A program made the position numbers and the translations under genes. A stretch of DNA of 55,418 nucleotides from Nitrospinota bacterium (GTDB lineage: Bacteria > UBA8248 > JACPRG01 > G963555815). The first letter of the stretch is position 1. Every line of letters starts with the position of its first letter. Under the pieces are notes generated by a model that saw only the letters and a list, made by a program, of their open reading frames with translations, ran no database searches and was not told where the DNA came from. Below, piece by piece: positions 23,787 through 54,207 of this stretch. Location of the stretch: positions 1 to 55,418 of the forward strand of contig JBHIBA010000003.1 in the NCBI GenBank assembly GCA_046758845.1, written 5' to 3'.

Positions 23787-23834
23787 TGGTGGAGGATAGG
23801 GGACTCGAACCCCTGGCCTCGCGGGTGCGATCCA
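23787..23834 (-). repeat. att site: 48-bp copy of the 3' end of tRNA-Ala(CGC)
   Basis: 47/48 identical to 54132..54179 in the same orientation. Confidence 0.95.
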
Positions 23835-23957
23835 TTTTAGGACGTTTTTACCGGATTGAGAATATTTAAGGAAATCCGAGAATTTCCCTCCCCATTCAGT
23901 CCTTTCTCTATGTCACCCTGTGTAGCTTGCGTCATGGTGTGTAGGCTCCATTACGGT

Positions 23958-23979
23958 AAAGTGGTGACAAAGTGGTGAC
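23958..23979. repeat. tandem 11-bp direct repeat AAAGTGGTGAC, candidate integrase arm-type site
   Basis: Two exact copies; an inverted TGTCACC at 23911 and TGGTGACA at 54075 near the other end. Confidence 0.6.
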
Positions 23980-23992
23980 AATGACAGTAAGC

Positions 23993-24073
23993 CTATACCA
24001 CCCCTAGGTTTGGTTCAACTGCCCTTAGAGCATCCAGAACCTCCACAGCCTTAGTCTTGCCGTCTGCTACCAA
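23993..24073 (-). pseudogene. possible C-terminal remnant of a tyrosine integrase
   Basis: Reads LVADGKTKAVEVLDALRAVEPNLGVV* and points toward the att copy. The identity is inferred only from position and the AVEVLD-type tail. Confidence 0.35.
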
Positions 24074-24311
24074 GCGTTGACGGACAGCCTCGTAGCCGAG
24101 GGTCAAAGGGGGCGACCTCCTGGCCCTCGTTTCCATCCGGGGGGCATCGTGGACACGTTTCGAACTTTTTGCCTAGTGCCTACCCCCGGCCTGAACCCGT
24201 TCACCTACTGTGCGAGGCTGATCTAGATCATTGATTTTTCGGAGCGATTGTAGCCTAAGTTCAAAGTGGTATTTTTTAACACATTGCCCGGAAAGGCCAA
24301 GGAGGAAACCT

Positions 24312-25844
24312 ATGCGCTTCCCGGTTTTTTTCAGAGTCTTCCCGCGACTTCGATTTGTTATCATCAGCGCCGTTATCCTTTGCGGGATGGGCATTTTCCT
24401 GGCCTTTTTCGTCGTCCGCTTCCTTGAAAAAGTCATGCTCTCCGAAATGGAGGCGGTCGTCGTTGACCACTACCGCTATCTGACGACCATGGTGATGCAG
24501 GGGGAAGACCTTGTTAAACTGAGATTCGGCGATGCGTATAAGCGGTTCGACCGGCGGATCAGGGAGCATGTTTTCTCTAAAGATGTAATCGTTATAAAGA
24601 TTTACGATAGGGAGGGACGGCTTCTCTACCACTCGAACAATCCGTATCTGGAGGGAAGAACGTTCGGGCCAAATCCTAATTTGAAGCGAGCCTTAGCCGG
24701 CGAGACGGTGATTACAATGAGCTCACTGCGGAGCCCGGAACACGTTCAAGAGAGGGCTGCGGGGTTCTCGAAGCTTCAGGAGATCTACCTCCCGATCCGA
24801 GCGAAGCAGGGCAGACAGGTGATCGGAAGCTACGAAATCTACCTGAGACCGAGGCCTTATGTCTACCGAATCCGGACCATGAAGGCCACGGTCTGGACGA
24901 TTTTCGCCTTGGGGCTGTTGCTTTTGAATGGCAACCTCTTCTGGATCATTCGCGACTGCGCTAACACCATGCGCCGGCAGCGAACGGCCTTGGAAGAGCG
25001 AGCGCAAAAACTTCTGAAATCAAACGAAGACCTTCGGAAGGCCCAAGCTCAGCTCATCCGCTCAGAGCGGCTCGCCTCAGCGGGTCAGATGGCTGCCGGC
25101 ATTGCACACGAGATCGGCAACCCTTTGACCTCCGTGCTGGGGCTTGTGGACCTCCTGCTAACACGTTCCGACAATGAACGCCGGCAGGAGGAGGTGCTAG
25201 AGCGGATCGCCTCGGAGATTGCCAGGGTCAAGCAAATCATCGGAAACTTGCTCGATTTTTCACGGCCGGCGGCCATATCCGTTGGATCCGTGGACGTGAA
25301 TCGAGCTATTGAGGACACGCTTCCCCTTGTCCGCGCCCAGCGGAGGTTCCGTAACGTGACCGTCCGTATGGACCTCGAGCCCACTCTCCCATTGGTTCAG
25401 GCCGACACAAAACAGCTCCAGCAGGTACTCGTCAATCTATTGAACAACGCAGCCGAAGCGGCGGGAGAAGAGGGAGAGGTTATTATCCGGAGCGAAGCTA
25501 TGCCGCGAGGGGAGGCTCCTTTGTCTGCAGCCGCTCAGGACTCCTTCGTCCGATTCTCCGTTACAGACACTGGGGGCGGGGTGGAAGCAGAGGACCCGGA
25601 ACGGATCTTCGATCCTTTCTTCACCACAAAGGGAACCGGAGAGGGTGTGGGGCTGGGCCTAGCGGTAAGCAGAGGTCTCATCGAGAAGTTCGGAGGGTCG
25701 CTGGAATTGGAAAACCACCCCGGCAAGGGCGCCACCTTTCACGTGTGGCTGCCGGTGAAGGAAGGGGACTTGCCAGGCGACGTCCGTCCCACTTGGCTGG
25801 ACAGCGTGAAGGGCAAGCAAGCGGCATCCCTGCAGGGACCCTAG
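24312..25844 (+). CDS. membrane sensor histidine kinase
   Basis: GGAGG RBS before ATG 24312; two TM helices, AHEIGNPL, NLLNNA, DTGGG, FDPFFTTK, GVGLGL. Confidence 0.93.
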   Translation: MRFPVFFRVFPRLRFVIISAVILCGMGIFLAFFVVRFLEKVMLSEMEAVVVDHYRYLTTMVMQGEDLVKLRFGDAYKRFDRRIREHVFSKDVIVIKIYDREGRLLYHSNNPYLEGRTFGPNPNLKRALAGETVITMSSLRSPEHVQERAAGFSKLQEIYLPIRAKQGRQVIGSYEIYLRPRPYVYRIRTMKATVWTIFALGLLLLNGNLFWIIRDCANTMRRQRTALEERAQKLLKSNEDLRKAQAQLIRSERLASAGQMAAGIAHEIGNPLTSVLGLVDLLLTRSDNERRQEEVLERIASEIARVKQIIGNLLDFSRPAAISVGSVDVNRAIEDTLPLVRAQRRFRNVTVRMDLEPTLPLVQADTKQLQQVLVNLLNNAAEAAGEEGEVIIRSEAMPRGEAPLSAAAQDSFVRFSVTDTGGGVEAEDPERIFDPFFTTKGTGEGVGLGLAVSRGLIEKFGGSLELENHPGKGATFHVWLPVKEGDLPGDVRPTWLDSVKGKQAASLQGP

Positions 25845-25860: not shown

Positions 25861-27351
25861 GTGTGGGAGCGTATTGGTACGGACTTTGCACCACTGGGAG
25901 GTGCGAATCTTTTGGCAACGGTGAAGGTCAGGGGTACAGGAAGTGCCAAGCGGGCCGCAGAAGTGACGCGCACGTTGAATTGCTCCAAGACTCTCGTCAT
26001 CGATGACGAAGAAAACACGCGGTACTTCCTGAGTCACCAGCTGAACGCCGAGGGCTACTCGGTCAAATGCGCTGCGAATGGGCAAGAGGGCCTTGACCGT
26101 TTGGCCGAGGAGAACTTTGACATTATTCTTTGCGATGTCCGGATGCCGTCCCTCAGCGGGTTCGACGTGCTCAAAGAGGCAAAGTTCCGAAACCCCGATT
26201 CCACGGTCATCCTTATGACGGCGTTCGGCAGCATTCGATCGGCCGTCGACGCCATTCAGAGCGGAGCATTCGATTATATTACCAAGCCTTTCAGGATTGA
26301 CGAACTCCTGAGAACCCTCCGGCGGGCGGAGGAGCACGCTGCACTTAGGCGAGAAATCCGTCTTCTGCGCGACACGCTCGGTGAAAAGTACAGCTTCCAC
26401 AACATCATCGGCAAAACCAAGGCCATGAAAGAAATCTTCACCTTGGTGAAGAAGGTTGCCGAGACCAACCTTCCTGTCCTCATTCTAGGAGAAACGGGTA
26501 CCGGAAAAGAACTCCTGGCAAAGGCGATGCATTTTCAGAGTCCACGGTGCAATCATCGCTTCGTGGCAATCAACTGCGGTGCCCTCCCTGAGGGACTGCA
26601 GGAGAGCGAGCTGTTCGGACACGTCAAGGGGGCGTTCACTGACGCGAGGACTGACAAGCCGGGGCTCTTTGAGCTGGCCCACCGCGGGACATTGTTTTTG
26701 GATGAAATCGGGGAACTCGCTCCAAATCTCCAAGTCAAGCTCCTCCGCGTGCTTGAAGACGGTGAGGTCCGCCGGGTAGGGGGAACCGAGGTTACTAATG
26801 TCGATGTCCGCGTGCTCGCCGCGAGCAACCTCGATCTGGAAGAAGAAATGGAGGGAGGGCACTTTCGCCAGGATCTCTTTTTCCGGCTGAACGTTGTCCC
26901 CATCCGGATCCCACCCCTTCGGGAGCGACGTGAAGACATCCCCTTGCTGGCCAATCACTTTCTTCGAGAGTTTTCAGCAGAAACCGGTCGGCCATCCAAG
27001 GTGTTGACGCCCAAAGCTCTCAAGGCGCTCCTTTCCTACGACTGGCCCGGCAACGTTCGTGAACTCAAGAACGTCCTCGAACGAGCTTCCCTCTCTGCCG
27101 ACTCAGATACCATTGAAAAGGATCACTTGGCAGCAATCCTGGGAAGCCACACCAGGGAGATCAAGGTGACCATCCCTGGCTCCTCTCTCCCGATGTCGCA
27201 GGTGGTCCGAGGTCTCGTTCGCGATGTTGAGAGGGAGCTAATACTGCGGGCCTTGACCGAGGAGGGAGGCAACCGAACCCGGGCCGCCGGCCGGCTCGGT
27301 ATCAGTCACCGCTCCCTTCTGTACAAGGTCAAAGAGTATGGCCTGGTTTGA
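25861..27351 (+). CDS. NtrC-family sigma54-dependent response regulator (true start probably ~100 bp downstream)
   Basis: [43 protein letters not shown]. Confidence 0.94.
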
Positions 27352-27460: not shown

Positions 27461-28056
27461 CGAATTCTTGTGCTTTTCCGCATTTGGCACCGGATTTGCC
27501 CTTTTCCTCAGTGAAGGGGTAAACCCATCGGGTCGTAGAGCGCTCAGGTTTGTCTCCTCTCTTCCGGGGAGTGCCCGTAGGAGCCGAATCCTTGAGAAGA
27601 AAAGCCAATAATATCAACGAGGTTCGTGAATCCCCCCCGGCGCGCGTATTTGGGACGCAATCCATTGCAACGGGCGAGTTGGCGGTGCCCCCAGACGCCG
27701 GTATGCAGGCCTTTGCGTACCTCGCTTCCCGACACAAAAAGAGCGGAATCTCCTCAGACAACCCGTTGTGCCCAGGAGCCGATGCAAATTCGTCATGCAA
27801 GTCCTTTCATAGCATGGCGCTGGCCATGAATTGCGGTCGGGGCTGGGCTTCACTCAGGAGTCCGGGTGGCCGGACCGCACTTTGCCGTTGTGTTTCCGGC
27901 GGCCAATGGTCCGCTGGCTGGAAGTCTAGAGGGAAGATCGGGCTGGTGCTCTTCGCCTTTTTCTGTGGGGCGTTGTCGGCGTTCGGCCTGCCCGCTGCCC
28001 ATGGGCGGCAGCCCTCACCGGGTGCAGCCCTCTACGCAAAAGAGTGCGCCATTTGC
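27461..28056 (+). repeat. diverged duplication of promoter, leader and cytochrome 5' end (copy 1; copy 2 at 42396..42898)
   Basis: Shared collinear blocks catttggcaccggatttgc, cgtagag, aaaagccaataa, caacgggcgag, ggtatgcRggcctttgcRtac, catgcaag..tttcatagc, ctctacgcaaa. Confidence 0.88.
27485..27499 (+). promoter_or_regulatory. sigma54 (-24/-12) promoter
   Basis: TGGCAC-CGGAT-TTGC just downstream of the NtrC-type gene. Confidence 0.85.
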
Positions 28057-29769
28057 CATGGAATCGAGGGAAAGGGAGACGGTCTGGCCGCTCAACACCT
28101 CGACCCCCGGCCGCGGGACTTCACCTCAGGCCTGTTCAAGTTTCGGACAACAGCCACGGGGGAGCTTCCTGCCGATGAGGACCTCTTTCGGACCATCTCC
28201 GAGGGCATTCCGGGGACTTCCATGCCAGCATTCGGTGTGGGGGCCCATCGACTAACCGAGGGGCAGATCCGATCGCTCGTCTCCCGGGTCAAAGAGTTCT
28301 CCCCAGATTTCCAGGATGAGGATCTGAGGCCCGAGAAGATGCCCATGCCCGGCAAGCCACCTCCACGGACGCCGACCCTGCTCCGGACGGGCCGAGAACT
28401 CTACCAGCAGGCGGCCAAGGGAGGCTGCGTGGTCTGTCATGGCGCATCAGGGCGCGGGGACGGGAAAGAAGCCGGAACGCACAAGGACGACTGGGGCGAT
28501 CCTATCCTCCCGGCAAACATCACTCGTGCCTGGCGGTTCAAGCGCGGGGCTTCGGTCCGAGACATCTTCTGGACGTTGTCCACGGGCTTGAATGGGACCC
28601 CTATGCCCGGCTACACAGACTCCCTCTCGGAGACGCAACGTTGGGCCTTGGCCTATTACACACACTCATTACTGGACCAGACGGTGTCCGAGAAGGGGCC
28701 GGTTGGTTCCTGGTTCTTGAAGGGAAAAGTTCCTACAGAGCCTGACGACCCCAGGTGGCAAATGGCCCGGCCCATTGAGATCCCTCTCTTCGGCCAGGTC
28801 ATTGTTAAGCCCCGGTGGCCCAAACCGGCCATTGATTCCGTTCGCGTCCGCTCCCTCCACAATGGGCGGACCATCGCATTCCTGTTGGAGTGGGATGACC
28901 GGACCCGGAGCGGCAGCAAGAAGGGCTCAGAGGCGCTCCCCGACCGGGTGGCGATCCTGTTCCCCGTCCGAGCCCTCCACCGCGAGTGGCCACATTTCCT
29001 CTGGGGTCAGAGAGGTCGGGAGGAGAACATCTGGCAGTGGAGCGCGGGTTCCTCGCAGGTTCTCGAACTCAACGCCTCCGGACCTCAACGCCTTCGCCGC
29101 CAGTCCAGTTCCGGTCAAGAAGTCCAAGGACGCGCCTCTTACATGGACGGACGATGGCGCGTCGTCCTCCGGCGCCATCTGATCACGAACGACCGCGAAC
29201 ACGACGCCCAGGTTCCCCAGGGTCGATCCATTCCCTTCGCCCTCATGGCCTGGGACGGGAGCCGGGGCGAGGAGGGATTGCGGGGGGCTATCTCCTCCTG
29301 GCATCTCTTGCAAGTGGACAGCTCAAAGGGCCCGCATCTCAAAGAAGAGAAGAACTCGGTCGCCGCCACACGGGTTGTCCATCCATTCCTTCCATCGAAA
29401 TACGTGGGTCTGGAAAATCCCTTTCGGCGTGATCGTTCCGCCCGATCCCGTTACTTGAAGGAGGGGGAGGCCATTTACGCGGCAAACTGCATTTTCTGTC
29501 ATGGAGACGGCTTGGACGGAAGGGGACACTTCGCCCGTGCCCTGACCCTCCCTCCGGCCGACCTGACCTCCCCCGAGTCCCTGGCTTCCTTGCACGAATC
29601 CTACGCATTCTGGCGAGTGCGCGAAGGGTGGGCGGCTCTGCCGCCTGAGTCGAAACCCTGGCTCTCCGCCATGCCCCGCTGGAAGGAAATCTTGACGGAA
29701 GAGGAAACCTGGAAGGTTCTCCTCTACCTCTACGACCGGATTGGCGTAAGGCCGCACCCCTGGTATTGA
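27814..29769 (+). CDS. triheme cytochrome c with an EB_dh (DMSO reductase type II gamma-like) domain; start uncertain
   Basis: CAICH, CVVCH, CIFCH; PRPRDFT..FKFRTT, GTPMP; central LEWDD...AWDG beta-domain; hydrophobic signal near the N-terminus. Confidence 0.88.
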   Translation: MALAMNCGRGWASLRSPGGRTALCRCVSGGQWSAGWKSRGKIGLVLFAFFCGALSAFGLPAAHGRQPSPGAALYAKECAICHGIEGKGDGLAAQHLDPRPRDFTSGLFKFRTTATGELPADEDLFRTISEGIPGTSMPAFGVGAHRLTEGQIRSLVSRVKEFSPDFQDEDLRPEKMPMPGKPPPRTPTLLRTGRELYQQAAKGGCVVCHGASGRGDGKEAGTHKDDWGDPILPANITRAWRFKRGASVRDIFWTLSTGLNGTPMPGYTDSLSETQRWALAYYTHSLLDQTVSEKGPVGSWFLKGKVPTEPDDPRWQMARPIEIPLFGQVIVKPRWPKPAIDSVRVRSLHNGRTIAFLLEWDDRTRSGSKKGSEALPDRVAILFPVRALHREWPHFLWGQRGREENIWQWSAGSSQVLELNASGPQRLRRQSSSGQEVQGRASYMDGRWRVVLRRHLITNDREHDAQVPQGRSIPFALMAWDGSRGEEGLRGAISSWHLLQVDSSKGPHLKEEKNSVAATRVVHPFLPSKYVGLENPFRRDRSARSRYLKEGEAIYAANCIFCHGDGLDGRGHFARALTLPPADLTSPESLASLHESYAFWRVREGWAALPPESKPWLSAMPRWKEILTEEETWKVLLYLYDRIGVRPHPWY

Positions 29770-29839: not shown

Positions 29840-31951
29840 GTGGGGGGAATAGTTCAGCGGGACGTGGGAATTCTGGAACAAATTCAGGCGGCGCAGGGGA
29901 GTGAATTCGTCGTGCGGGAGCCGGTTTGCTCGGCTGGCCGGGGGACATGGATCCGCCCCTGCCTTTGGGTCAAGGGCCGCCTTTTCCTCCTAATCGTCCT
30001 CTCACCCCTCTTTTTTGCCATCCCGGCTCTGGCCCAGACGGCGGCCGCCAGACCCGTTGACTACCGGTCTTTCTTTGGCCTGGACTCCCGGACGGCAATC
30101 TGGATGATTGCCGAGATCCACCTCATGTTCGGGGCCTTCGTCCTGGGCGTTCCCATCTTCGCCCTCATCGTCGAGATCATCGGTGCCAAAACCAAGGACC
30201 ATCGCTACGACAACCTGGCCCGCGAGTTCGTCAAGCTGCTGGTGGCGGCCTTCTCCACGACGGCCTCTCTGGGGGGGCTCCTGGTCTTCGCCCTTTTCGG
30301 CCTCTATCCCAAGTTTATGGGCTTCATGACCGGTATCTTCGGGCCCACCATGTACGTTTATGGGTTTCTCTTCTTCGTCGAGGCCTTCAGCCTTTACCTC
30401 TACTACTACTCCTGGGACCGACTGGCGGATCGCAAGGCCCTCCACATCGGCCTGGGTGTGCTGCTGAACCTCTCGGGCATCCTCATCATGATGATCGCCA
30501 ACTCGTGGGCGACCTACATGATGAGCCCAACGGGCATTGACGAGAAGACCGGTCAGTTCATTGGCACGCTCTGGCAGGCGGTCGATAACCCCTTGTGGAA
30601 CCCCGTCAACATCCACCGCTTCATCGCCAACGTGGCGTTCGGGGGTTTCATCGCGGGGGCATACGCGGCCATCAAGTTCTTGGGGGCCAGGTCCGCGGAT
30701 GAGCAGGCCCACTACGACTGGATGGGGTACATCGGCAACTTCGTCGGGATCGCGGCCCTGATCCCTCTGCCCTTTGCCGGCTACTATCTGGGGCGGGAGG
30801 TCTATAGCGCCAGTCCCGTCATGGGGAACAACATGATGGGAGGGGCCTTTTCCTGGACCTTCATCATCCAGGCGCTGCTCATCGGCATGCTGTTCATCGG
30901 CGCCAATTTCTATCTCTGGAACGGCATGGAGCGGATCCCCGGGGCCGAGCGCTACACGCCCTACATCAAGTGGCTGAACCTCGCCCTCATCCTTTCCTTC
31001 GTCGTATGGCTCACCCCTCACAATCTCCCCCTCTCCTCGCAGGAGCAGATCCTGATGGGGGGCCAGTACCACCCCGTGCTGAAGTACCTGGGTCTGATGC
31101 CGGCTAAGAACGCGGTGGTGAACTTCATTATCCTCTCAACCTTATTCTCCTTCCTCCTGTACCGGCGGGGGAACAAGGGCAAGACCCTCCCCATCAGCGC
31201 ACAGGGGAGGACCACGAGGATCGTCCTCGCCGCGGCTTCGGTCGTCTGCATCCTCATCCTTTATTGGTACGCCGACTTCCTCTTTCGCCTGGAGGCGAAA
31301 GAGATGGACCTGCCGGCCGAGCGGGCCTCCATTTTCCGCTTCACGGCCTGGCTGCTGGTCATCGAGATGGTCGGCGTTCTCATCGCGGCCGGCTTGACCT
31401 TCTGGGACCGGGGAGTCCCGGCCCAGTTTTTCTACCTCCTCCTGACGGCCGTCCTCGTCACGGGCGTCCTGGGCGTCTATGGGTTCGTCGTCCTCGAGAA
31501 GGCGAACCCCTTCCTTCGGAACATCGCCGTCGTTCAGGTCCTGATGGTCCTGACGGCCCTCATCCTCGGCACGACCATCGACGTCTGCGTCTTCCGCAAT
31601 GCCGAGGAGATCGGGCAGATTGCGTGGGGGAAGGTCCCCGCACGGGCCCAGTACACGCTCGTGCTCCTGTGCGTCTCCATCGTCATGCTCATGGGGCTCA
31701 TGGGCTTCATCCGCTCGGGCCTGCGGGAGGACTGGCACATCTATGGTGCGATGCGGGATACCTCGGCCGGCGCCTTCACCCCGACAATGGCCTACATGTC
31801 CTGGGTGGTCGGGGCCATCACGATCGTCTTCCTCGGCCTTGTGGCCTTCGTGTTCTGGCTGGCGAGCCTGGGCGAAGCGAAGCCGGGAACCGGGCATCGG
31901 GAGATGAGTCCGGCGGGCGTCCCGGCGGGGGCAGGGGGGGAGGTGCAATGA
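29840..31951 (+). CDS. cytochrome bd-like oxidase subunit (CydA-like); start uncertain
   Basis: Many TM helices; EIHLMFGAFVLG, VEAFSLYLYYYSWD, ANSWATYMMSP and NIHRFIAN match the CydA N-half His/Glu positions. No obvious Q-loop. Confidence 0.85.
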   Translation: MGGIVQRDVGILEQIQAAQGSEFVVREPVCSAGRGTWIRPCLWVKGRLFLLIVLSPLFFAIPALAQTAAARPVDYRSFFGLDSRTAIWMIAEIHLMFGAFVLGVPIFALIVEIIGAKTKDHRYDNLAREFVKLLVAAFSTTASLGGLLVFALFGLYPKFMGFMTGIFGPTMYVYGFLFFVEAFSLYLYYYSWDRLADRKALHIGLGVLLNLSGILIMMIANSWATYMMSPTGIDEKTGQFIGTLWQAVDNPLWNPVNIHRFIANVAFGGFIAGAYAAIKFLGARSADEQAHYDWMGYIGNFVGIAALIPLPFAGYYLGREVYSASPVMGNNMMGGAFSWTFIIQALLIGMLFIGANFYLWNGMERIPGAERYTPYIKWLNLALILSFVVWLTPHNLPLSSQEQILMGGQYHPVLKYLGLMPAKNAVVNFIILSTLFSFLLYRRGNKGKTLPISAQGRTTRIVLAAASVVCILILYWYADFLFRLEAKEMDLPAERASIFRFTAWLLVIEMVGVLIAAGLTFWDRGVPAQFFYLLLTAVLVTGVLGVYGFVVLEKANPFLRNIAVVQVLMVLTALILGTTIDVCVFRNAEEIGQIAWGKVPARAQYTLVLLCVSIVMLMGLMGFIRSGLREDWHIYGAMRDTSAGAFTPTMAYMSWVVGAITIVFLGLVAFVFWLASLGEAKPGTGHREMSPAGVPAGAGGEVQ

Positions 31952-35459: not shown

Positions 35460-35504
35460 GCGGAAAGCTCCTTCCCCAACCCATTCGAGGAGGTGGAAAG
35501 GGAC

Positions 35505-36311: not shown

Positions 36312-36382
36312 CCGGGAGGAGACACGGGATCCTCCCGCAGCCCAGCGCGCGACCGTTGGATCGCAACGAGCCGGGGAGAGTC

Positions 36383-42898: not shown

Positions 42899-42924
42899 GC
42901 CAGAATCGAAGAAAATATCGCGCA

Positions 42925-45254: not shown

Positions 45255-45288
45255 TCCCTCCCGGTGGGCGTTGTCAAACCGGGAGGGA
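45255..45288 (+). promoter_or_regulatory. hairpin overlapping the porin Shine-Dalgarno sequence
   Basis: Perfect 11-bp stem TCCCTCCCGGT/ACCGGGAGGGA; its 3' arm runs into GGAGG upstream of GTG 45294/45297. Confidence 0.6.
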
Positions 45289-45296
45289 GGAACGTG

Positions 45297-46382: not shown

Positions 46383-46451
46383 GCCGAGTCGAGAACTACA
46401 GGGCCGATCGGCGCGGCGAGTCACCCGGCCCAGAGAACCTTGGAGGAGATC

Positions 46452-48446
46452 ATGAGCAGGCCGGCTCCCAACCGAAGACAAACGAAGGGCCGGCAGGCGG
46501 GAGGGCTCCACCCACCGGGAGCCCTCCTGACAATTTCTTTCCTCGCTGGCCTCCTACTCCTGTCCGTCGCGGCGGCGAACAGCCTCCGGGCTGCGGACCT
46601 CTCCGACGTGGAGCGCCTGGCCCGCGATTTTGCCACGGTCCTGGAGGAGAGGTTGCGTCCCCCAAGGGCGACGGTCCTTCGCGTCTCCGGCGACCGCCTC
46701 ACCGCCATCCAGGCCCGCCAGTGGATGCTATCCGCGGGGACAAGGTTCCATCTGGTCCGCAAGGAGCAAGAAGTGCTCCACCCGATCACTGGAGAGAGCC
46801 TTGGGTTTGTTGAGGTCCCCGTAGGGGAGGTCGAGGCGATCACGGGCGGAGACCGGGTATTCATGGGGCGGGTCCTCCGACTGGAAAAGGGAATCACTCC
46901 GAAGGCGGGCGACCTCCTGACCCCCTCTTCTCGGCAGGTCCTCGTCACCATCCTGCCCCTAGGGGGCGACCCCTCCACTGGTGTGAGCTATCTCCGGGAC
47001 CGGCTGGCCACTCGTCTTGCCGATGGCGGAAAGATCCAGGTCGTTGACGAGGCGCCCGTGAAGACGGTCCTCGCAAAGGCTGGGAGCCCTGGTGACGCCT
47101 CTGCGCTGTCCCCAAAGGTCCTCCGTGCATTGGCCGAAGAGCTCTCGATAAAGGTCGTGCTGGTCCGCTCGGTGGAAGCGGACAGGGGCGGCCGGCGGCT
47201 GCGGGTCCGCGCTGTCGCTACCCGAACCGGCGTCCTCGTGGCAACAAAGGAAATCTCCCTGGGCGCTGAGCGGCCGGTGCGGAGAGGACCCACTCCCGAA
47301 CCGCGCACCGGGCTCCGACCTCTTGCGCCGAAGGGGCAGGTCACGGAACCTGCGGCGCAGCCAAAACCCCCGGAGGCGGTCGGAGGTCTCAGGGCCCTGA
47401 AACGTCCGCGCGAGTTCAGCGGCGGAGGAAAGGTCGTCCAGCTGGACTTCGCGTTGACCAGTCTGGACGTGGCGGACACGGATGGTGACGGAAGAAGCGA
47501 GGTGGTGCTTGTCAGTGAGGATCGAGTCTGGCGACTCGACCTCAGTCCGAAGAGTCCTGTTCCCCAATCGATTTACCGGCGCTTCATGGGCGCCAACTTC
47601 ATCCACGTCCGGGCCTCCGACATCAACCGCAATGGCAAGGCGGAGATCTTTGTAACGAATCACCCCGACCGGGTTGTCAACTCCTTCGTCCTGGAAACTG
47701 ATGGGGCAGGCTACCGAAATCTCTCCACGAAACTCCCGAGCCGGTCAGCCCACTACGAGATTGCGGGAGATTGGGACGGGGACGGTCGGAACGACCTCTT
47801 CTGGCAAAGGGCCGGGCTGGACGACCTCTTTCTGGGATCGGTCCACAGGGCTGTGTGGAAGACCGGACGTTATACCGAAGCGCCCTTCCCAACACTCCCC
47901 CAGAGTCTATCGCTCTACGGCTTCGTCGTTGGGGACCTGACCGGGGACGCTCAACGAGACTTCGCCTACCTGGACCGCTTCGGCAAAGTTGTCGCATTCT
48001 CTCCATCGGAGAAGGTTCTCGCCCGGAGCGAGGAGACGTACGGAGGCTCTGCCACCCCCATCTACCCCAACCACATCGGGGACCCGATTGAGTACGGCTT
48101 TAAGAAGACCCGTCTCGTCCTCCGTGACCTGGACGGCGACGGACGGCCCGAGATCTTAACCGTGAAGAACGTCCTGAGGCGGGGGAAAGTCGGCTTCGTC
48201 AAGGTGAAGTCGCTGGTGAGTTACGACAACGGGCGCATCGCCGCCCTCAAGTGGACGAAGGGCGGACTGGAGGAGCGGTGGGCCACTCCCTTGCTGGGGG
48301 GATATGTGGTGGACTTCGCCGTTGGCGACGTGGACGGAGAGGGCCGCACCGATCTGGTGGTCGGAGTCCTCGAGCCTCCCGAAGGATCGCTGTTTCGTGG
48401 TTACCGATCGAAACGCAGCCGGCTGCACGTCTTTCCGCTCCAGTGA
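46452..48446 (+). CDS. exported FG-GAP/VCBS repeat protein
   Basis: Signal peptide; DTDGDGRSE, DINRNGKAE, DWDGDGRND, DLTGD, DLDGDGRPE, DVDGEGRTD Ca-binding repeats. Confidence 0.85.
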   Translation: MSRPAPNRRQTKGRQAGGLHPPGALLTISFLAGLLLLSVAAANSLRAADLSDVERLARDFATVLEERLRPPRATVLRVSGDRLTAIQARQWMLSAGTRFHLVRKEQEVLHPITGESLGFVEVPVGEVEAITGGDRVFMGRVLRLEKGITPKAGDLLTPSSRQVLVTILPLGGDPSTGVSYLRDRLATRLADGGKIQVVDEAPVKTVLAKAGSPGDASALSPKVLRALAEELSIKVVLVRSVEADRGGRRLRVRAVATRTGVLVATKEISLGAERPVRRGPTPEPRTGLRPLAPKGQVTEPAAQPKPPEAVGGLRALKRPREFSGGGKVVQLDFALTSLDVADTDGDGRSEVVLVSEDRVWRLDLSPKSPVPQSIYRRFMGANFIHVRASDINRNGKAEIFVTNHPDRVVNSFVLETDGAGYRNLSTKLPSRSAHYEIAGDWDGDGRNDLFWQRAGLDDLFLGSVHRAVWKTGRYTEAPFPTLPQSLSLYGFVVGDLTGDAQRDFAYLDRFGKVVAFSPSEKVLARSEETYGGSATPIYPNHIGDPIEYGFKKTRLVLRDLDGDGRPEILTVKNVLRRGKVGFVKVKSLVSYDNGRIAALKWTKGGLEERWATPLLGGYVVDFAVGDVDGEGRTDLVVGVLEPPEGSLFRGYRSKRSRLHVFPLQ

Positions 48447-48507
48447 GCAAAGCCCCGATAGGGCGCAATCGCGTCGAAGCCGGATCGGGAAGGGGGAAAC
48501 CCGCGCC

Positions 48508-49932
48508 ATGAGGAAGCGCGTCGTCATCCTGGGCGGTGGTCCATGCGGCCTCAGCGCGGCCTGGAGGCTAACTACGGGGGCCGAAGACATCGACGTTGTC
48601 GTGGTAGAGCGAGAGGAGGAAGTGGGCGGCCTCTGCCGGACCTTGGCCCACGGAGATTTCCGCTTTGACCTCGGGGGACATCGTTTCATCTCCTCCGACC
48701 CGGTGCTCATCGAACGCATTCGCCGGCTGATGGGGGAGGAGCTTCTCCTTCGCGAACGAAAGAGCGTCATCCGACTGGAGGGCCGCGACTTCGCCTATCC
48801 CCTCTCTGCGTCCGATCTGCTCAAGCGCCTCCCCCCGGGTTTGACACTCCGGGCTTTTGCCGATTTTCTGAGAACCGGTTCCTGGAGGCGGAACGGCGGT
48901 CCTCCCGACGTCTCCTTTGAAGACTGGGTCGTCCGTCGGTTCGGGCGCACTCTGTTCGATCTCTTTTTCGGACCCTACTCGGAAAAACTCTGGGGGAGGC
49001 CGCCTTCGCGTCTCTCAGCGGATTGGGCGGCTCAACGGATCTCCCTCTTGAATCTGGGAGAAGTGGCCCTTCGGCTCCTCGGTCTCGGCCAGGGGACGCC
49101 CAGGACCTACTCGAAGCGCTACTACTACCCGAGGGAAGGGATCGGCCAGATCTTCCGGTTCATTGCTGCCGAGGTGGAGGCCGGGGGCGGACTCATCCTC
49201 CGGGGGACCAGGGCCATGTCGGTCCGGTCCGAAGGAGGCCGGGTGGTATCCGTTGAGATCGACAGAAGTGATGGACGCTTTTTCCTTTATTGCGATTACC
49301 TGATTTCCACCCTCCCCCTCCCGGAACTGATCCGGCTATTTAGAGATAAAGAAGCGCACGGCGTCCGGGAAAGCGCCACTCGCCTCCAGTTCCGGAGCAT
49401 GCGCTTCCTCAACCTGCTTATCGACCGGCCGCAGATCAGCCCGAACACCTGGATTTACGTTCCAGAATCCCGTTACCTCATGACGCGCATCCAGGAGCCC
49501 AAACGTAGGAGCCCCCACAGCGCACCGCCCGGCAAGACTTCCCTGATGCTGGAGATCCCTTGCGCCCAAGGGGACGGTCTCTGGACGGCTTCCGACGACG
49601 CGCTTGCTGATCGATGCCTCCGGGATCTGGACGCCTTGGGCATCCGTATTCGAAACGATGTGCTGGGTTGCTTTTCCACCCGGGCGGTCCACGCCTACCC
49701 CATTTATTCCCTGGACTATCGGATCCACCGCGGTCGCTTGCTCCAGTTCCTGGGACGGTTCGAGAATCTTCTGTCCTGTGGCCGACAGGGGACATTCCGC
49801 TATCTCTTCATGGACGCGGCCATGAAGATGGGGTTTTCCGCCGCGCGCTGCGTCTTGGGAGAGGCTGACTGTGAAGAGCTCGATGGCATCGCCGCCGAGG
49901 CCAGGCTTATCGAAGCCGGGGCGACGACTTGA
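48508..49932 (+). CDS. FAD-dependent oxidoreductase (protoporphyrinogen oxidase / UDP-galactopyranose mutase-like)
   Basis: ILGGGPCG, VGGLCRT, FDLGGHRF, YSEKLWG, YYYPREG, AYPIY, GRQGTFRY..MD. Confidence 0.85.
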   Translation: MRKRVVILGGGPCGLSAAWRLTTGAEDIDVVVVEREEEVGGLCRTLAHGDFRFDLGGHRFISSDPVLIERIRRLMGEELLLRERKSVIRLEGRDFAYPLSASDLLKRLPPGLTLRAFADFLRTGSWRRNGGPPDVSFEDWVVRRFGRTLFDLFFGPYSEKLWGRPPSRLSADWAAQRISLLNLGEVALRLLGLGQGTPRTYSKRYYYPREGIGQIFRFIAAEVEAGGGLILRGTRAMSVRSEGGRVVSVEIDRSDGRFFLYCDYLISTLPLPELIRLFRDKEAHGVRESATRLQFRSMRFLNLLIDRPQISPNTWIYVPESRYLMTRIQEPKRRSPHSAPPGKTSLMLEIPCAQGDGLWTASDDALADRCLRDLDALGIRIRNDVLGCFSTRAVHAYPIYSLDYRIHRGRLLQFLGRFENLLSCGRQGTFRYLFMDAAMKMGFSAARCVLGEADCEELDGIAAEARLIEAGATT

Positions 49933-51481
49933 CCCGCCTTTCGCAAAAGGGACGTGGACCTTTGCCATTGCCATCACGGCACTGGGGGTCACCCTTCGGA
50001 TGGCCTTTGCCGTGGACTACCTGGAGGGATGGGACTCGGTCGATTTCGCCTTGGCCTTGGACCATTACTCTCTCTCGGAGCAACAACCTCATTTCCCCGG
50101 CTATCCCGTCTATATCTGGATTGCCCGAACCCTCAGACCCCTTTTCACCGGTGAGGCCTCCGCTCTGGCGGCCACCAGCGCCCTCTTTGGGGGGCTCGCG
50201 CTTCTGCCTTTCTTCGGGCTCGCCAGGACGCTTTTCGGTCCCTCTGAGGCTATCGCGGCCACACTGTTTTTTCTTTTCACTCCCCTTCAATTCCTGGCCG
50301 GCACGAAAGCGCTGTCCGATGCCACGGGCCTTTTCTTCTTACTGACCTTCCTTTGGCTGGCCCTTTGTGCGCAAAGGGAAGCGGAAAGACCGGGGGGATG
50401 GGTGTTTGCGGGCCTTGCCGGGTCCGCCCTGGCTTTGACCCTGGGCGTACGACTTTCCTACACCCCTTTCGTGCTTACGGGTGCTTTCCTGCTCGTTCCC
50501 TGGTTGAGGGCATCCCGAAGTTCTTCCGAACGCCTTTGCCGGGTCGTTGTTCCTCTCGCGGCCTTTACGCTTTCCGCTGCGTCCTGGCTATGGTGGCAGA
50601 TGGCGCAGGAGGGGGTGCGCGGCTTCTGGACCGAGGCCCTTCGCTTCACCGAAGGACACTTCGGAGAATGGGGAGGAACGGTCGTGACAAACCCGGACAT
50701 CGGGGGCCGTCTGGCGGAGCTATTCCGGGGGCTCTTTGTCCACGGATTGGGGTTTTGGGAGCCGGGAAGCGAAAGCTGGCGGTGGTTAGCGACGCTCACC
50801 GTGGGTGGGGTCGTCCTAGCGGGATTTCTATCTATCCATACGGCCTCGCGAAGTAAGGTCTTTTTCCTGGCGTCCTGGCTGATTCCCTATGGAGTTTGGG
50901 TCCTTCTAGCCCAGAATCCAGGTAAGCCGAGACACCTCCTCCCTCTCGTTCCCCTCTTCCTGATGTGCGGGTCGGTAGGGGCGAGACGGCTGGCCGCCGC
51001 CGTCTGCAATCTTTTCCCCGGCCTCGAAGGATACACGAAGCCAATAGGGATGATCTTCGTTGGTCTGGCAACCCTCGGACCTGCTTTGACTTCCATCCAG
51101 CTTGCCCGGGTTCACAAAGCTGAGCCCGCACCGGCCTTACAGATGGTTCAATACATAAGGGAACGGTTCGGCCCCGGAGAGGTAATGGTTTTCCTCGGCG
51201 AGGAGAAAAGGCTGTTCGACTACTATGCTCCCGCATTCTTCGTCGAGCGGCTCCGGAGCGCAGCCGACGCGGAGGCGGCCCTTGCCGTTCATCAACCGCT
51301 CCCTCAAGCGGTCTTTTTCACTTCCGGTATCCACGGACTAGACGGGACTGCTTCCAGTACCCCGAAGAACCTCCAACTGGTCCGAGTATTTTCCAGGAAC
51401 CCGTATGTCCATCCGGCCTACAGCCGTGTCGCTCTTTACCGCCTCCATCCTCAGTTAGAGGAAGGGCACTCCAAACCATGA
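49883..51481 (+). CDS. GT-C fold integral membrane glycosyltransferase (PMT-like); start uncertain
   Basis: WDSVDF...QPHFPGYP first loop, LSD, GVR, RHLLP, more than ten TM helices. Confidence 0.75.
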   Translation: MASPPRPGLSKPGRRLDPPFAKGTWTFAIAITALGVTLRMAFAVDYLEGWDSVDFALALDHYSLSEQQPHFPGYPVYIWIARTLRPLFTGEASALAATSALFGGLALLPFFGLARTLFGPSEAIAATLFFLFTPLQFLAGTKALSDATGLFFLLTFLWLALCAQREAERPGGWVFAGLAGSALALTLGVRLSYTPFVLTGAFLLVPWLRASRSSSERLCRVVVPLAAFTLSAASWLWWQMAQEGVRGFWTEALRFTEGHFGEWGGTVVTNPDIGGRLAELFRGLFVHGLGFWEPGSESWRWLATLTVGGVVLAGFLSIHTASRSKVFFLASWLIPYGVWVLLAQNPGKPRHLLPLVPLFLMCGSVGARRLAAAVCNLFPGLEGYTKPIGMIFVGLATLGPALTSIQLARVHKAEPAPALQMVQYIRERFGPGEVMVFLGEEKRLFDYYAPAFFVERLRSAADAEAALAVHQPLPQAVFFTSGIHGLDGTASSTPKNLQLVRVFSRNPYVHPAYSRVALYRLHPQLEEGHSKP

Positions 51482-53004
51482 ACGCTTCGCACAATCGGTT
51501 CGAGACGGTCTCGCTCCTCGTTGTCGTGTTCACGGTCGGCGGTGCGGTGATGGTTCTGGAGATCCTAGGGTCCCGCATCCTGGGACCCTATTTCGGCGCC
51601 GGCCTATACGTGTGGTCCGGCATCATTTCGGTCACGCTACTTTCCTTGGCCCTTGGCTACTGGCTCGGCGGTCTCTTGGCTGACCGCTGGAACCAACTCT
51701 CAACGCTGACCGGTCTCACTTTCGCGGCTGCTCTTCTGATCTTGCTCATCCCCACAGCCCGGCCGCTCGTGTTGACCCATGCGGGTCGATTGGGATTCCG
51801 GCCGGGGGTGTTAGTCAGCGCGTTCCTCCTTTTCTTTCCGCCCCTGACTCTCCTGGGGATGGTGACCCCGGCGGCGGTCAAACTGCACACTCGGAACCTG
51901 GCAAACCTCGGCTTGACGGCCGGCCGCCTATACGCGGTTTCCACACTGGGGAGTTTGCTCGGAACCCTGTTGACCGGCTTTGTCCTCCTCCCCGCCTTCG
52001 GGACCGCCCGAGTCTTGCATTTCACGGCGGGCCTCCTCGTCCTTCTCGCCTTGATCACAGGGGCCCGGAACAAGTGTTCTCAATCCCTCGTGCCACTCGT
52101 CGGCTTGGCCGTTCTTCTCTTCCCGATCCTGGGCCGGCAGACACCCGCGGGACAAATGATCGATCCCTGGAGGGTTCTTCACCGGTCGGAGAGCCTTTAC
52201 GGGAACTTGGTGGTGGCGGAATCGGGGACCACGAGGCACCTGCTAGTAGATGGGACGGTCCAAAGCGCCATTGAACTTAAATCAAGAGAGCTTGTATTCG
52301 CGAGCCATCGGCTGATCCTGGAAATCCTGGGGAGGGTCGCCCCCGCCCGGGGGCAGACACGGTCCCGACTCTTGGTTGTAGGACTTGCTGGGGGAGTTCT
52401 CCCCACGAAGCTCTCCGATTCCCGGTGGGACATCCAGATTGTGGAGATCGATGGGCGAATGCCAGAGGTGGCCCGAGATTTTTTTGGGTGGAACCCCCGG
52501 AGATTTCGCTTTACGGAAGATGACGGGCGCCACTTCCTTCAGACCCATACCGAAAGATTTGATGCTATCGTGCTGGACGCTTTCGTCGGTGAGGTGATCC
52601 CCGCACACCTCCTGACTCGCGAAAGCTTCGAACTGGCCCGAGCCAGACTCCGGCCGCATGGTCTTTTGCTTCTCAACACCATTGCCTTTCAGAGGGGGAA
52701 GAGTACGGTCATCCCCGCCTCGATCGCCCGCACCCTCTCTACGGCGTTTTCGCATGTCGTCCTCTGCCCTCTGCGGAAAGAGGGGAATTTCGGGAATATC
52801 GTCTTCGTAGCGGCGGGGCAGGAAAGGGTGCCAAGACCGTTCGCACCGGCCGGGGCCTGCGCCCCTCCCTCCGAAGTGTTGGAAGAGCCTGGGATCGTCC
52901 TTACCGATGATCGGAATCCTCTGGAAACATGGTGGGTCAAGAATTCTGCCTTGGCCCGGAGGGCGTTGTGGGAGGTCGTCGACCGTCGTGTCCTCTTCGA
53001 GTGA
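51478..53004 (+). CDS. fused MFS-like / spermidine synthase protein
   Basis: MVLEILGSRILGPYFG, GRLYAVSTLGS, VVGLAGG, VEID, DGR, IVLDAF, HLLTRE, LTDDRNP. Confidence 0.9.
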   Translation: MNASHNRFETVSLLVVVFTVGGAVMVLEILGSRILGPYFGAGLYVWSGIISVTLLSLALGYWLGGLLADRWNQLSTLTGLTFAAALLILLIPTARPLVLTHAGRLGFRPGVLVSAFLLFFPPLTLLGMVTPAAVKLHTRNLANLGLTAGRLYAVSTLGSLLGTLLTGFVLLPAFGTARVLHFTAGLLVLLALITGARNKCSQSLVPLVGLAVLLFPILGRQTPAGQMIDPWRVLHRSESLYGNLVVAESGTTRHLLVDGTVQSAIELKSRELVFASHRLILEILGRVAPARGQTRSRLLVVGLAGGVLPTKLSDSRWDIQIVEIDGRMPEVARDFFGWNPRRFRFTEDDGRHFLQTHTERFDAIVLDAFVGEVIPAHLLTRESFELARARLRPHGLLLLNTIAFQRGKSTVIPASIARTLSTAFSHVVLCPLRKEGNFGNIVFVAAGQERVPRPFAPAGACAPPSEVLEEPGIVLTDDRNPLETWWVKNSALARRALWEVVDRRVLFE

Positions 53005-53053
53005 GCGAAAGGTGAGTGCCACCTGCATTGTACTCACTTCTTCGTCCATAACC

Positions 53054-53959
53054 TGTACTGGTTCAAGAGATATGAGACACAGGGGCCGTGGTTTTTGGTT
53101 TCACCAAGGCCTGGGCAGGGGTCAGGTAGTCCAGGGCCTGATGGGGTCGAACGTGGTTGTAGATGTGCTCCCACTTGCGAAGGTGGGCGTTGAGGGAGGC
53201 CACCGTCCATGGGAGCTTGTGCACCTCGTAGAACTCCTCGGTATGGGTCCTTTGGGCGCGCGAGAAGATCTCCATGACGTCCCAGCGACACACCACGTCG
53301 CGGGCCGTGAACTGCTTCAGCGTCACCCCCGCAAGAGGGCTCAGGTCCAGGGTGTCCACCTGGACGAGGTCCCCGGGGCGGCGGGGCTGATAGTCTTTGG
53401 GCTTGCGCGTGGCATAGGGCCGGCTGAGGCGACGCCTTTTGGCGCTCACACCGTTCACTTTGGGTTCCACCAACCGCCCCCGGCTTTTGAGGTGGCTCAG
53501 GAACCGGCCCACCGTGGAGACCGAGGGCGCGATCCCCTCGCGGCCAAGCAACACGACCAGCTTGACCTTGCCCCATCGAGCATACTGTTCTCGAAGGCGC
53601 AACACCGCCTGGACCAACTCCGGCGACCAGGTGGGCCTTCGCACCCGGCGGGGTCGCCGCGAGCGCGTCTGAAGCGTCGTCAGGTCCTTGGGGTCAAACC
53701 GAGCCCGCCACCGGTACAGCGTCGCTCGGCTCACCTGAAAGGTTCGGCAAACCAGCTTCACGTCCTCGCTCTCCCGCCAAAGACTCAGCGCCCGAAGCCG
53801 GTCCCGCGCCTCGCCGGAGAGTTCCAACGCCCCGCAGCCTCCTGCGTGCAGGAGGCTGCGGGGCAACCCAAATACCCGCATCCGGGGACCTCCTCTCTAT
53901 TGGCCCCTGGTAGTCTACCCCCTCCTCAGGGTTGTCTCACATCTATCTGAACCTATTCA
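53054..53959 (-). mobile_element. IS481-like insertion sequence, internally deleted
   Basis: Imperfect terminal IRs TGTACTGGTTCAAGAGATATGAGACA (53054..53079) and TGAATAGGTTCAGATAGATGTGAGACA (reverse complement of 53933..53959). No TSD seen. Confidence 0.8.
53063..53881 (-). pseudogene. integrase-core (rve) transposase with an in-frame deletion of most of the DDE core
   Basis: HTH (VSRATLYRW), PGDLVQVDT, then FSRA joined directly to QRTHTEEFY; YNHVRPHQALDYLTP. The DNG and NGxVER segments are absent. Confidence 0.8.
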
Positions 53960-54113
53960 GTAATGGCTGGAGGCAAGGACTCGATGGTTTCGGGCACAGG
54001 AGGCCGCTAGCCCAGTGAGCTATGGGGTCTGAGCTGATTGTACTCCTACTCTGGCTCTCATGTAGATGGCGGTTTGGTGACAGTCTCTTCTTTCCGCCCC
54101 TTTATCTTCCTTC

Positions 54114-54126
54114 TAACTCATTGATT
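54114..54126 (-). promoter_or_regulatory. IHF binding consensus next to the att core
   Basis: Minus strand AATCAA-TGAG-TTA matches WATCAANNNNTTR exactly. Confidence 0.6.
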
Positions 54127-54131
54127 TTAGA

Positions 54132-54207
54132 TGGTGGAGGATAGGGGACTCGAACCCCTGGCCTCGTGGGTGCGATCCACGCGCTCTCCCAGCTGAGCTA
54201 ATCCCCC
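54132..54207 (-). tRNA. tRNA-Ala(CGC)
   Basis: 76 nt; acceptor stem GGGGGAT/ATCCTCC with G3:U70, D-arm AGCTCAGCTGGGAGAGC, anticodon stem CGTGG/CCACG with loop ATCGCAC, GTTCGAGTC, encoded CCA. Confidence 0.97.

Follow-up and report, generated by a model that had tools for sequence, protein, structure and literature searches.

The subject of this analysis is a tRNA-Ala locus of a Nitrospinota bacterium (assembly GCA_046758845.1) at which about 30 kb of DNA, encoding a bd-like oxidase together with its cytochromes, maturation proteins and regulators, lies between the tRNA gene and a partial copy of the 3' end of this gene. The stretch analysed, hereafter the window (55,418 nt), is the entire contig C3 (JBHIBA010000003.1) of the source genome, G000, whose assembly comprises 5.13 Mb in 598 contigs with a guanine plus cytosine (GC) content of 0.617. 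The 30.3 kb between the two repeat copies are called island A, and the decayed element whose remnant lies just beyond the partial copy is called element B (Table 1).

The repeat of the tRNA-Ala 3' end and the remnants beside it

ARAGORN and Rfam both find a single tRNA gene in the window, an intact tRNA-Ala(CGC) that is 97–99% identical to the tRNA of G001 and G004, and the Rfam scan of the window gave no other match. The part of this gene that extends from the 5' strand of the anticodon stem to the CCA end (positions 29–76) recurs at the other end of island A, in the orientation of the tRNA gene, with 47 of 48 identical positions (23787–23834); the identity is 50/52 if the 4 nt past the 3' end are included. 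A 25-nt core of the repeat occurs twice in the window versus 0.00 times expected (100 shuffles), blastn detects two copies and no more in the 5.13-Mb assembly, and a third copy sought in the window with up to 3 mismatches in 25 nt was not found. The single mismatch of the 48-nt repeat sits in the non-functional copy, where T-G replaces a T-A pair of the anticodon stem; across the repeated part, the live tRNA matches that of G001. As the distal copy is a 3' fragment that starts in the anticodon stem and keeps the orientation of the gene, the arrangement has the geometry of a site-specific integration into a tRNA gene. A first reading of the DNA from its sequence alone (the sequence-only reading) had reported a 47/48 direct repeat of the tRNA 3' end around some 20 co-oriented genes; this description was borne out, with about 22 plus-strand open reading frames (ORFs) between the copies.

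The same reading had seen no intact integrase in the island, which the domain searches confirm. Indeed, the tyrosine recombinase profile PF00589 has no match on the contig, its nine matches in the genome being all on other contigs, and no recombinase gene lies between the repeat copies. Two pieces of debris were nevertheless found at the ends of island A. The first, inside the island and beside the tRNA, is an IS481-family remnant in which only the HTH_32 and rve_3 domains were detected; its ORF reaches 129.7 bits against an NCBIfam cut-off of 224, and an internal deletion has removed about 181–187 nt that are present in three copies of G002. The second lies outside island A, 303 nt beyond the partial tRNA copy with which it is convergent. 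By tblastn, window 22626–23477 is 55% identical to residues 295–574 of a 574-residue protein of G027 that carries Resolvase and Recombinase domains. Since the match covers these residues only, the window ORF is the tail of a large serine recombinase gene; neither the Resolvase nor the Recombinase domain was found in the ORFs of the window, and the catalytic half is gone. The ORF upstream of this tail contains a mannitol-dehydrogenase-like fragment, and no other homologue of the serine recombinase was found in G000.

Table 1. Features of the window, grouped by subject (positions in nt from the first letter of the window)
Feature	Position	Strand	Basis
tRNA-Ala(CGC), intact, candidate integration target	54132-54207	-	ARAGORN; Rfam RF00005, 62 bits
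Proximal copy of the repeat: tRNA positions 29-76 and 4 nt past the 3' end	54128-54179	-	repeat search
Distal partial tRNA copy (3' end), interpreted as the original end of the gene, now displaced	23783-23834	-	repeat search
Island A, 30.3 kb between the repeat copies	23835-54131	.	no orthologous DNA in 6/6 family genomes
Large serine recombinase, C-terminal part, outside island A (element B remnant)	22626-23483 (ORF 22680-23483)	+	
Spacer from recombinase stop to partial tRNA end, 303 nt	23484-23786	.	
IS481-family remnant, inside island A beside the tRNA	53054-53960 (ORF 53063-53881)	-	HTH_32 + rve_3 only
Sensor histidine kinase (HisKA + HATPase_c)	24312-25844	+	domain search
Sigma-54-dependent response regulator (receiver + AAA+ + Fis helix-turn-helix)	25861-27351	+	domain search
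Sigma-54 -24/-12 promoter-like site TGGCACCGGATTTGC, upstream of operon 1	27485-27499	+	motif search
Three-haem-c protein with EB_dh domain (haem b, dimethyl sulfoxide (DMSO)-reductase type II gamma-like)	27550-29769	+	domain search
CydA-like bd-like oxidase subunit, ORF of 703 residues	29840-31951	+	PF01654
Membrane-anchored monohaem cytochrome c (CRPCH), start overlapping the CydA stop	31948-32805	+	re-called gene
Dihaem cytochrome c fused to EB_dh, signal peptide	32812-34539	+	domain search
Membrane-anchored dihaem cytochrome c	34536-35459	+	domain search
Secreted CarboxypepD_reg-like beta-sandwich protein, conserved module member	35493-36311	+	domain search
Protein with two Usp and two PCP_red domains	36173-37807	+	63% identical to syntenic gene of locus L038
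Mrp/ApbC-like Fe-S cluster carrier ATPase	37954-38853	+	domain search
Two PCP_red-domain proteins	38850-39353 and 39387-40283	+	domain search
Radical SAM/SPASM protein, NirJ2/AhbD-like, C-terminal PCP_red	40781-42142	+	domain search
Second, identical sigma-54 promoter-like site TGGCACCGGATTTGC, upstream of operon 2	42422-42436	+	motif search
Duplicated 5' piece of the first gene of operon 1, decayed haem site (CAICA for CAICH)	42530-42928	+	repeat family
EB_dh protein with CRAQCH	42886-44007	+	domain search
Monohaem cytochrome c	44004-44447	+	domain search
Operon 2 cargo: BBP2 porin, FG-GAP protein, PRK07208-type flavoprotein, PMT_2 glycosyltransferase, fused MFS/spermidine-synthase-like protein	45264-53004	+	

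The locus and the recombinase in related genomes

The tRNA-Ala(CGC) gene is present in all seven genomes of the family, that is, in G000 and in the six genomes compared with it, none of which is of the same genus. Its 5' flank is syntenic, homologues of the G000 contigs C136, C554 and C25 following the tRNA in 6/6 genomes. The best match of window 54505–54720, which belongs to a dehydratase gene, stands beside the tRNA in four of the six; in G002 this neighbour is a 329-residue gene of the GDP-mannose-dehydratase family, of which the window keeps the last 72–83 codons only. Most of this gene has been replaced in the window by a dispersed repeat of about 500 nt (54733–55250), which has up to 183 overlapping blastn matches (at least 75% identity) in the rest of the genome, very frequently at the ends of contigs, and has neither an Rfam match nor internal repeats; it probably accounts for the fragmentation of the assembly into 598 contigs.

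The 3' flank of the tRNA differs among the three other genera and also within one genus, between two of its species. The first genus has C273 and C462 homologues there and the second has C52 and C33 homologues, while in the third the flank consists of C50 and C41 homologues in G002 and of about 12 kb devoid of any G000 homologue in G005. In G002, a gene encoding a 401-residue P4-type integrase (Arm-DNA-bind_3, Phage_int_M and Phage_integrase domains; L028:184-1389) begins 77 bp past the orthologous tRNA-Ala(CGC), which indicates that this tRNA gene is used by integrative elements in the family. This integrase gene is followed by an unknown gene and then by a DDE transposase fragment. A second copy of the tRNA 3' end was sought in G002, G003, G005 and G006 with up to 3 mismatches in 32 nt, and none was found.

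The part of the window without counterpart in the family extends beyond island A. Window 296–8903, which encodes a xanthine-dehydrogenase-family operon and its neighbours, has nucleotide matches of 68–79% in G002, G003, G005 and G006, never beside the tRNA. From 8925 to 53050, the family genomes yield short domain-level matches only, and neither the island DNA nor a homologue of the CydA-like protein was found in any of the six. The lone island of about 30 kb that had been proposed from the sequence is therefore better described as part of a lineage-specific stretch of about 45 kb (8925–54131), with a second decayed element at the distal repeat. A further direct repeat of 48 nt (9384–9431 and 23996–24043; 42/48), found on this contig only, has one copy on the border of the conserved backbone and a second one 160 nt within island A. 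Each copy ends a small minus-strand ORF (…EVLDALRA(V/I)EPNLG…); the flanks of the copies could not be aligned and no further copies were found. At the other extremity, window 1–55 is identical to C33:24667-24721 of G000, an exact 55-nt overlap that joins C33 to the start of the contig; in G002 and G006, C33 homologues are found beside the xanthine-dehydrogenase-family operon, and in G003 and G006 such homologues are close to tRNA-Ala.

The position of the recombinase remnant relative to the partial tRNA was compared with that of its homologues. The survey returned 26 matches outside G000, of which 12 places (14 rows) were examined and 12 rows, mostly short fragments, were not, giving 13 loci with the window. 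In nine of them the recombinase is convergent with an intact tRNA gene located about 199–323 nt from its stop: tRNA-Ser in six cases (three in G004, L127 to L129, and one each in G016, L131, G012, L125, and G032, L126), tRNA-Ala(GGC) in G015 (L135) and tRNA-Gln in G008 (L134) and G038 (L136). The window (303 nt) and G027 (L130; 289 nt) have a partial tRNA-Ala-like 3' end at this place, and no tRNA was called beside the recombinase at the two loci of G014. The members of this family have about 574 residues; G004 carries three near-identical copies at three different tRNA-Ser genes, and a DUF2924 gene precedes the recombinase in G027. Among the spacers, that of the window shares with that of G016 a 31/40 block at the same offset, a score that 0 of 200 shuffles reach, and its other pairwise comparisons were not significant. 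On both sides of the partial tRNA, the similarity between the window and G027 is not above that of shuffled sequences, and in G004 and G016 the 5–7 kb that follow the recombinase genes yielded no tRNA repeat. As in the known islands of large serine recombinases at tRNA or tmRNA genes, the gene thus stands at the end of an element, is convergent with the tRNA 3' end at a fixed short distance, and belongs to a clade whose members are found at different tRNAs (Ser, Ala, Gln); the window differs in that it keeps the C-terminal part only and adjoins a partial tRNA rather than a live one.

This arrangement bears on an explanation that dispenses with any integration of island A. The partial tRNA would then be a 5'-truncated relic of an older or second tRNA-Ala gene that was the target of the serine recombinase, and the 30 kb would be chromosomal DNA lost or moved in the relatives. 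Indeed, a recombinase followed by a spacer of about 300 nt and a tRNA 3' end is the normal situation at the nine intact tRNAs, the 30 kb are host-like in composition, and the gene order around the tRNA is heavily rearranged in the family. However, a single tRNA-Ala(CGC)-type match (87–99% identity) was obtained in each of the six genomes of the family, the weaker matches being other isoacceptors. Furthermore, the copy begins at tRNA position 29, in the usual crossover region, in direct orientation and with 47/48 identity, the partial tRNA-Ala-like copy of G027 ends at a similar point, and the family lacks detectable island DNA as well as the CydA-like gene. This explanation is considered very improbable.

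The respiratory genes of island A

The gene content announced by the sequence-only reading, i.e. a bd-like oxidase, maturation genes and a regulator pair, was entirely recovered, as a CydA-like protein, NirJ/AhbD-like radical SAM and Mrp/ApbC-like proteins, and a histidine kinase with a sigma-54-dependent response regulator. Its count of ten CxxCH motifs and one CX3CH was also reproduced, the latter being CRAQCH; one of the CxxCH motifs (CARCH at 40560) falls in an ORF of uncertain reality. In the gene that follows that of the CydA-like protein, the frame conserved in relatives is 31948–32805 and not the ORF 31992–32732; the re-called gene has one CxxCH and its product is 61% identical to that of the gene after CydA in locus L038.

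The CydA-like protein matches PF01654 over profile positions 2–243 of 418 only (E 2.4e-26), and its residues 86–274 alone align with residues 13–201 of the Geobacillus CydA chain 5doq_A. In this part, a His, a Glu and a His fall at the positions of the haem ligands and of the proton-channel glutamate of 5doq_A; beyond residue 327, no alignment was obtained with the Pfam profile or with solved CydA chains. The ORF has no CxxCH, and a crude Kyte-Doolittle scan predicts at least 12 hydrophobic segments; OR-N1 and OR-N2 proteins have 14 transmembrane helices. The OR-N enzymes are described, in the available part of the source, as lacking a quinol site, as encoded in operons with other electron donors and as biochemically uncharacterised (bioRxiv 10.1101/2021.01.16.426971).

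Taken together, these features fit the OR-N bd-like family, already described. As in this family, the match to CydA is confined to the N-terminal helices, in which both His ligands and the channel Glu are aligned. Also in common are a C-terminal half that is not alignable with the solved quinol oxidases, many extra predicted helices, and an operon that contains c-type cytochromes and EB_dh haem-b proteins. The absence of CxxCH from the CydA subunit separates OR-N from OR-C, and the window protein conforms to this trait. Near-full-length matches at 58% identity carry Scalinduaceae and Brocadiales labels, and bd-like oxidases are known from Nitrospira, Nitrospina, anammox bacteria and Ca. Manganitrophus; the accessible parts of the papers on Nitrospinota, Nitrospirales and Ca. 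Manganitrophaceae present them as putative cytochrome-c-oxidising terminal oxidases, unassayed (PMC9040806, PMC10839748, PMC12342949). The island departs from OR-N loci in several respects: no second CydA-like (CydA') gene adjoins the CydA-like gene, molybdoenzyme alpha and beta genes are absent, and the module lies between tRNA attachment (att) scars together with a sigma-54 two-component system. The placement, which relies on such features, is made at the level of the OR-N family as a whole. The bd-like subunit probably reduces O2.

The oxidase gene is flanked by four cytochrome c or EB_dh genes, an order kept in four other loci. Indeed, the succession CydA, transmembrane cytochrome c, cytochrome c-EB_dh, cytochrome c and CarboxypepD_reg-like protein also occurs, with small permutations, in L038, L040, L041 and contig C380 of G000 itself. 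The genes immediately upstream of CydA in L037, L038 and L039 encode radical SAM and PCP_red proteins, and the radical SAM protein of the island is 60–61% identical to its counterparts there. The 4-kb contig C380 (L020) carries a second, divergent copy of the module, with a CydA 49–53% identical and genes for cytochrome c, transmembrane cytochrome c and cytochrome c-EB_dh; its gene order resembles that of Anaerolineales- and Acidobacteria-labelled loci. Operon 1 would encode a cytochrome-c-dependent bd-like oxidase of the OR-N type, haem c and haem b (EB_dh) proteins for electron entry, and the genes for haem and Fe-S maturation.

The CydA-like protein has numerous homologues, at least 6919 of the 8000 candidates scored having E <= 1e-20. 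The best 120 are 58–71% identical and, where named, are labelled Rokubacteria, Nitrospinota, Acidobacteria, Binatia, Anaerolineae, Chloroflexi, TA06, Bacteroidota, Methylomirabilales/NC10, Nitrospirota, Deltaproteobacteria, Myxococcota, Scalinduaceae and Brocadiales. A search of the species-representative genome collection with exact peptide patterns gave five loci only with close relatives. The protein is found in 3/41 genomes including G000: in none of the six of the family, and in 1/33 and 1/1 genomes of two other families. In a quick tree, the island CydA is sister to the copies of G025 and G040, two class-level relatives, with a Shimodaira-Hasegawa-like approximate likelihood ratio test (SH-aLRT) value of 91, the next sequence being labelled Acidobacteria; the C380 paralogue is on a very long branch, and the Nitrospirota/Nitrospirae-labelled sequences form a separate clade.

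At the G040 locus (L018:10923-19979), genes for a molybdopterin alpha subunit, an FeS beta subunit, a NarJ-like chaperone (delta) and a cytochrome c-EB_dh gamma subunit directly precede the module; these alpha-to-gamma genes correspond to a type II DMSO-reductase-family enzyme. G000 has homologues of alpha, beta, delta and gamma on another contig (C28:5189-11195), at 63, 73, 36 and 38% identity, respectively. On the basis of this gene neighbourhood in one locus, electrons may be proposed to pass from a molybdoenzyme to the bd-like oxidase: periplasmic donors would reduce the EB_dh and cytochrome c proteins, which would in turn supply the bd-like membrane subunit, one likely donor being the molybdoenzyme encoded on C28. 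In G025, a tRNA-Ala(GGC) gene (L019:1811-1886) lies about 2.3 kb upstream of the maturation genes of the module, with a cytochrome c/CusF-repeat protein between them. As no integrase is found between this tRNA and the module, the proximity was taken as coincidence and not as the mark of an island.

Both operons of island A are preceded by the same perfect sigma-54 promoter-like site (TGGCAC-N5-TTGC), within a duplicated region of about 400 nt (27.5 and 42.3 kb; 69% identical). If one mismatch is allowed, the window has 6 sites versus 2.87 expected, so that the case for promoters rests on the identity and placement of the two sites and not on their number. The two-component sensor and the sigma-54 activator encoded by the island may drive operon 1 and operon 2 through these identical promoters, the island thereby controlling its own transcription. 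The island kinase aligns along its whole length, at 30% identity, with the kinase encoded at 17594–19042. The latter belongs to a second pair of histidine kinase and sigma-54 regulator in the left flank (17594–20439), 30% and 43% identical to the island pair and of the same architecture, near which two further perfect sigma-54 promoter-like sites are located (17307–17321, minus strand; 21457–21471, plus strand). A metagenome scan with the island kinase gave only generic matches to the kinase core (30–43% identity, 80 loci kept) and no second island boundary. The small ORFs of the far end of the island (24173–24436 and 23993–24136) have no Pfam match.

Operon 2 begins with the decayed duplicate of the 5' end of the first gene of operon 1, followed by the EB_dh gene, the monohaem cytochrome c gene, a gene for an unknown protein and the cargo that runs from the porin to the MFS protein. 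This second operon supplies a further pair of EB_dh and cytochrome c proteins besides the porin and enzymes related to the envelope.

A probable tRNA-Ala hot spot with stacked elements

Because an IS481 remnant lies inside island A and a serine recombinase remnant 303 bp outside, the locus is a tRNA-Ala hot spot with at least two stacked, decayed elements. The two repeat copies are best read as the scars of a site-specific integration and island A as an integrated, no longer autonomous element that has lost its own recombinase, in an additive tRNA hot spot, a reading to which we give a probability of about 0.65. Integration at tRNA-Ala(CGC) would have left island A between the displaced 3' end and the live tRNA. 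As the remnant of element B lies directly beyond the distal repeat, the partial copy appears to be the former true end of the tRNA gene; element B would once have adjoined the complete tRNA-Ala gene, its recombinase tail and the spacer marking its end. An alternative order, in which island A came first and element B entered at the distal copy, would produce the same map. The integrase of island A may have stood at the present site of IS481 and have been lost with the insertion of the latter.

The horizontally acquired and now immobilised island put forward by the sequence-only reading agrees with the geometry of the repeat, the variable 3' side of the tRNA, the P4-type integrase beside this tRNA in G002, the absence from the family and the lack of a recombinase, and does so less well with several other results, which weigh against the reading adopted here. 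An empty tRNA-Ala site was sought in the six family genomes, all of other genera, and none has the left flank of the window beside the tRNA; with rearranged 3' flanks and only other genera to compare, the empty site could not be reconstructed. The 600 nt beside the intact tRNA and beside the partial copy are both unlike the DNA found downstream of the tRNA in the relatives. No third tRNA copy is present at the far end of element B, and tblastn reveals no trace of a P4 integrase of the G002 type in the window or the genome, the integrase of island A being wholly missing. The composition is host-like, with a GC content of 0.611 versus 0.617 for the genome and tetranucleotide distances between the 57th and 87th percentiles for most 5-kb windows. 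The CydA tree, which was to serve as a check, does reveal patchiness and a sister relationship to class-level copies, but it is compatible both with transfer within the class and with old vertical descent followed by many losses; it neither dates nor directs a transfer. Finally, none of the five other loci showed the cargo of operon 2 next to the module, and the linkage between left flank, repeat and island rests on the assembled contig, as the public contigs built with k = 31 break in the repeat.

These public contigs come from hydrothermal-vent metagenomes, four runs of one study containing parts of 23000–25000, all assembled with k = 31. In run X1, contigs end and start inside the repeat, as its exact shared stretch is 36 nt in a k = 31 de Bruijn graph. 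No joint of an empty site or of a circle was found in these contigs, which at k = 31 is not evidence of absence; the joints listed were cross-matches between sigma-54 AAA domains. A mis-join at the repeat would mean that the recombinase remnant abuts the intact tRNA and that the 30.3 kb form a separate circle with the partial tRNA as attP. Besides the short exact repeat and the unconfirmed linkage, it has in its favour that the alternative joining recreates the order of recombinase, spacer and intact tRNA seen in the relatives. It appears extremely unlikely, however, as the contig runs through both copies, the depth of the X1 contigs is equal on the two sides (9.4–10.7), and a circular element of this kind would be devoid of its own recombinase. 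In addition, an exact repeat of 36 nt is shorter than the larger k-mers and the read lengths of common metagenome assemblers, which would also argue against a mis-join.

A less remote alternative to a single integrated element, which we nonetheless hold to be unlikely, is a composite region built by several successive acquisitions with loss of the intermediate att copies, in which the respiratory operon would not necessarily come from the element that made the repeat. As the cargo of operon 2 is unlinked to the module elsewhere, the island may indeed hold more than one acquisition. Furthermore, the DNA without orthologue in the family covers all of 8925–54131 and not just the repeat-bounded part, the IS remnant and the remnant of the second element testify to repeated traffic of mobile DNA, and accretion is what the tycheposon model predicts, as far as the available text of its source goes (bioRxiv 10.1101/2020.12.28.424599). 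The composition is also uneven, the tetranucleotide outliers being 22.5–27.5 kb (98th percentile) and 30–35 kb (96th). Such a history has to be reconciled with the presence of only two copies of the tRNA end, with the common duplicated promoter/5' region of the two operons and their single island-encoded activator, and with the co-orientation of all 22 genes with short gaps. The strongest composition outlier of the contig lies outside the island, at 10–15 kb (GC 0.69; 100th percentile). It corresponds to a GC-rich block (9762–15098; GC 0.69) whose tetranucleotide usage is more deviant than that of any other 5-kb window of the genome. Genes for a urea-transporter/SIR2 fusion, an Orn/DAP decarboxylase and a double ATP-grasp protein lie in this block, for which no DNA match was found in the family and which looks like a separate foreign segment.

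Classical P4-type tRNA islands are a related known kind of element. Another is the additive tRNA-associated island of the tycheposon model, for which the consulted part of the source reports stacked elements with fragmented integrases, the newest being next to the tRNA, and a large serine recombinase in 27 of 937 (bioRxiv 10.1101/2020.12.28.424599). The likeness concerns the intact tRNA at the proximal side, the partial tRNA 3' copies between elements, the decayed recombinases, the niche-related cargo and the variable tRNA flank. The differences are that one repeat pair survives here, that island A has neither a recombinase nor a replication module, and that the host is an uncultured hydrothermal-vent bacterium and not Prochlorococcus, with a respiratory and regulatory block of 30 kb as cargo. 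A stronger proposal, in our view a rather doubtful one, would be that island A and the recombinase remnant form one tycheposon-like system, in which tRNA-specific large serine recombinases build additive islands at tRNA genes of this bacterial class and cargo without recombinase travels as a passenger through the outer att copies. If true, this passenger model could explain why the oxidase module is found, at 58–71% identity, in metagenome-assembled genomes that carry the labels of about a dozen phyla or candidate phyla.

Island and oxidase both belong to kinds that are already known, and the locus adds a further example of each; a literature search combining 'genomic island' and 'bd-like' returned nothing on this topic, as judged from the listing. 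The bd-like (OR-N) oxidases are widespread, being found in nitrite oxidisers, anammox bacteria, manganese oxidisers and many uncultured phyla. The present locus ties a module of this kind, regulators and cofactor genes included, to the scars of tRNA integration and may therefore offer a concrete route for its patchy spread. From 24.3 to 42.1 kb, it would constitute a compact, self-regulated gene set of 18 kb, suited to expression in another host. More largely, the family of serine recombinases located at a fixed distance from the ends of tRNA-Ser, tRNA-Ala and tRNA-Gln genes provides a lead on the use of tRNA hot spots outside the well-studied groups.

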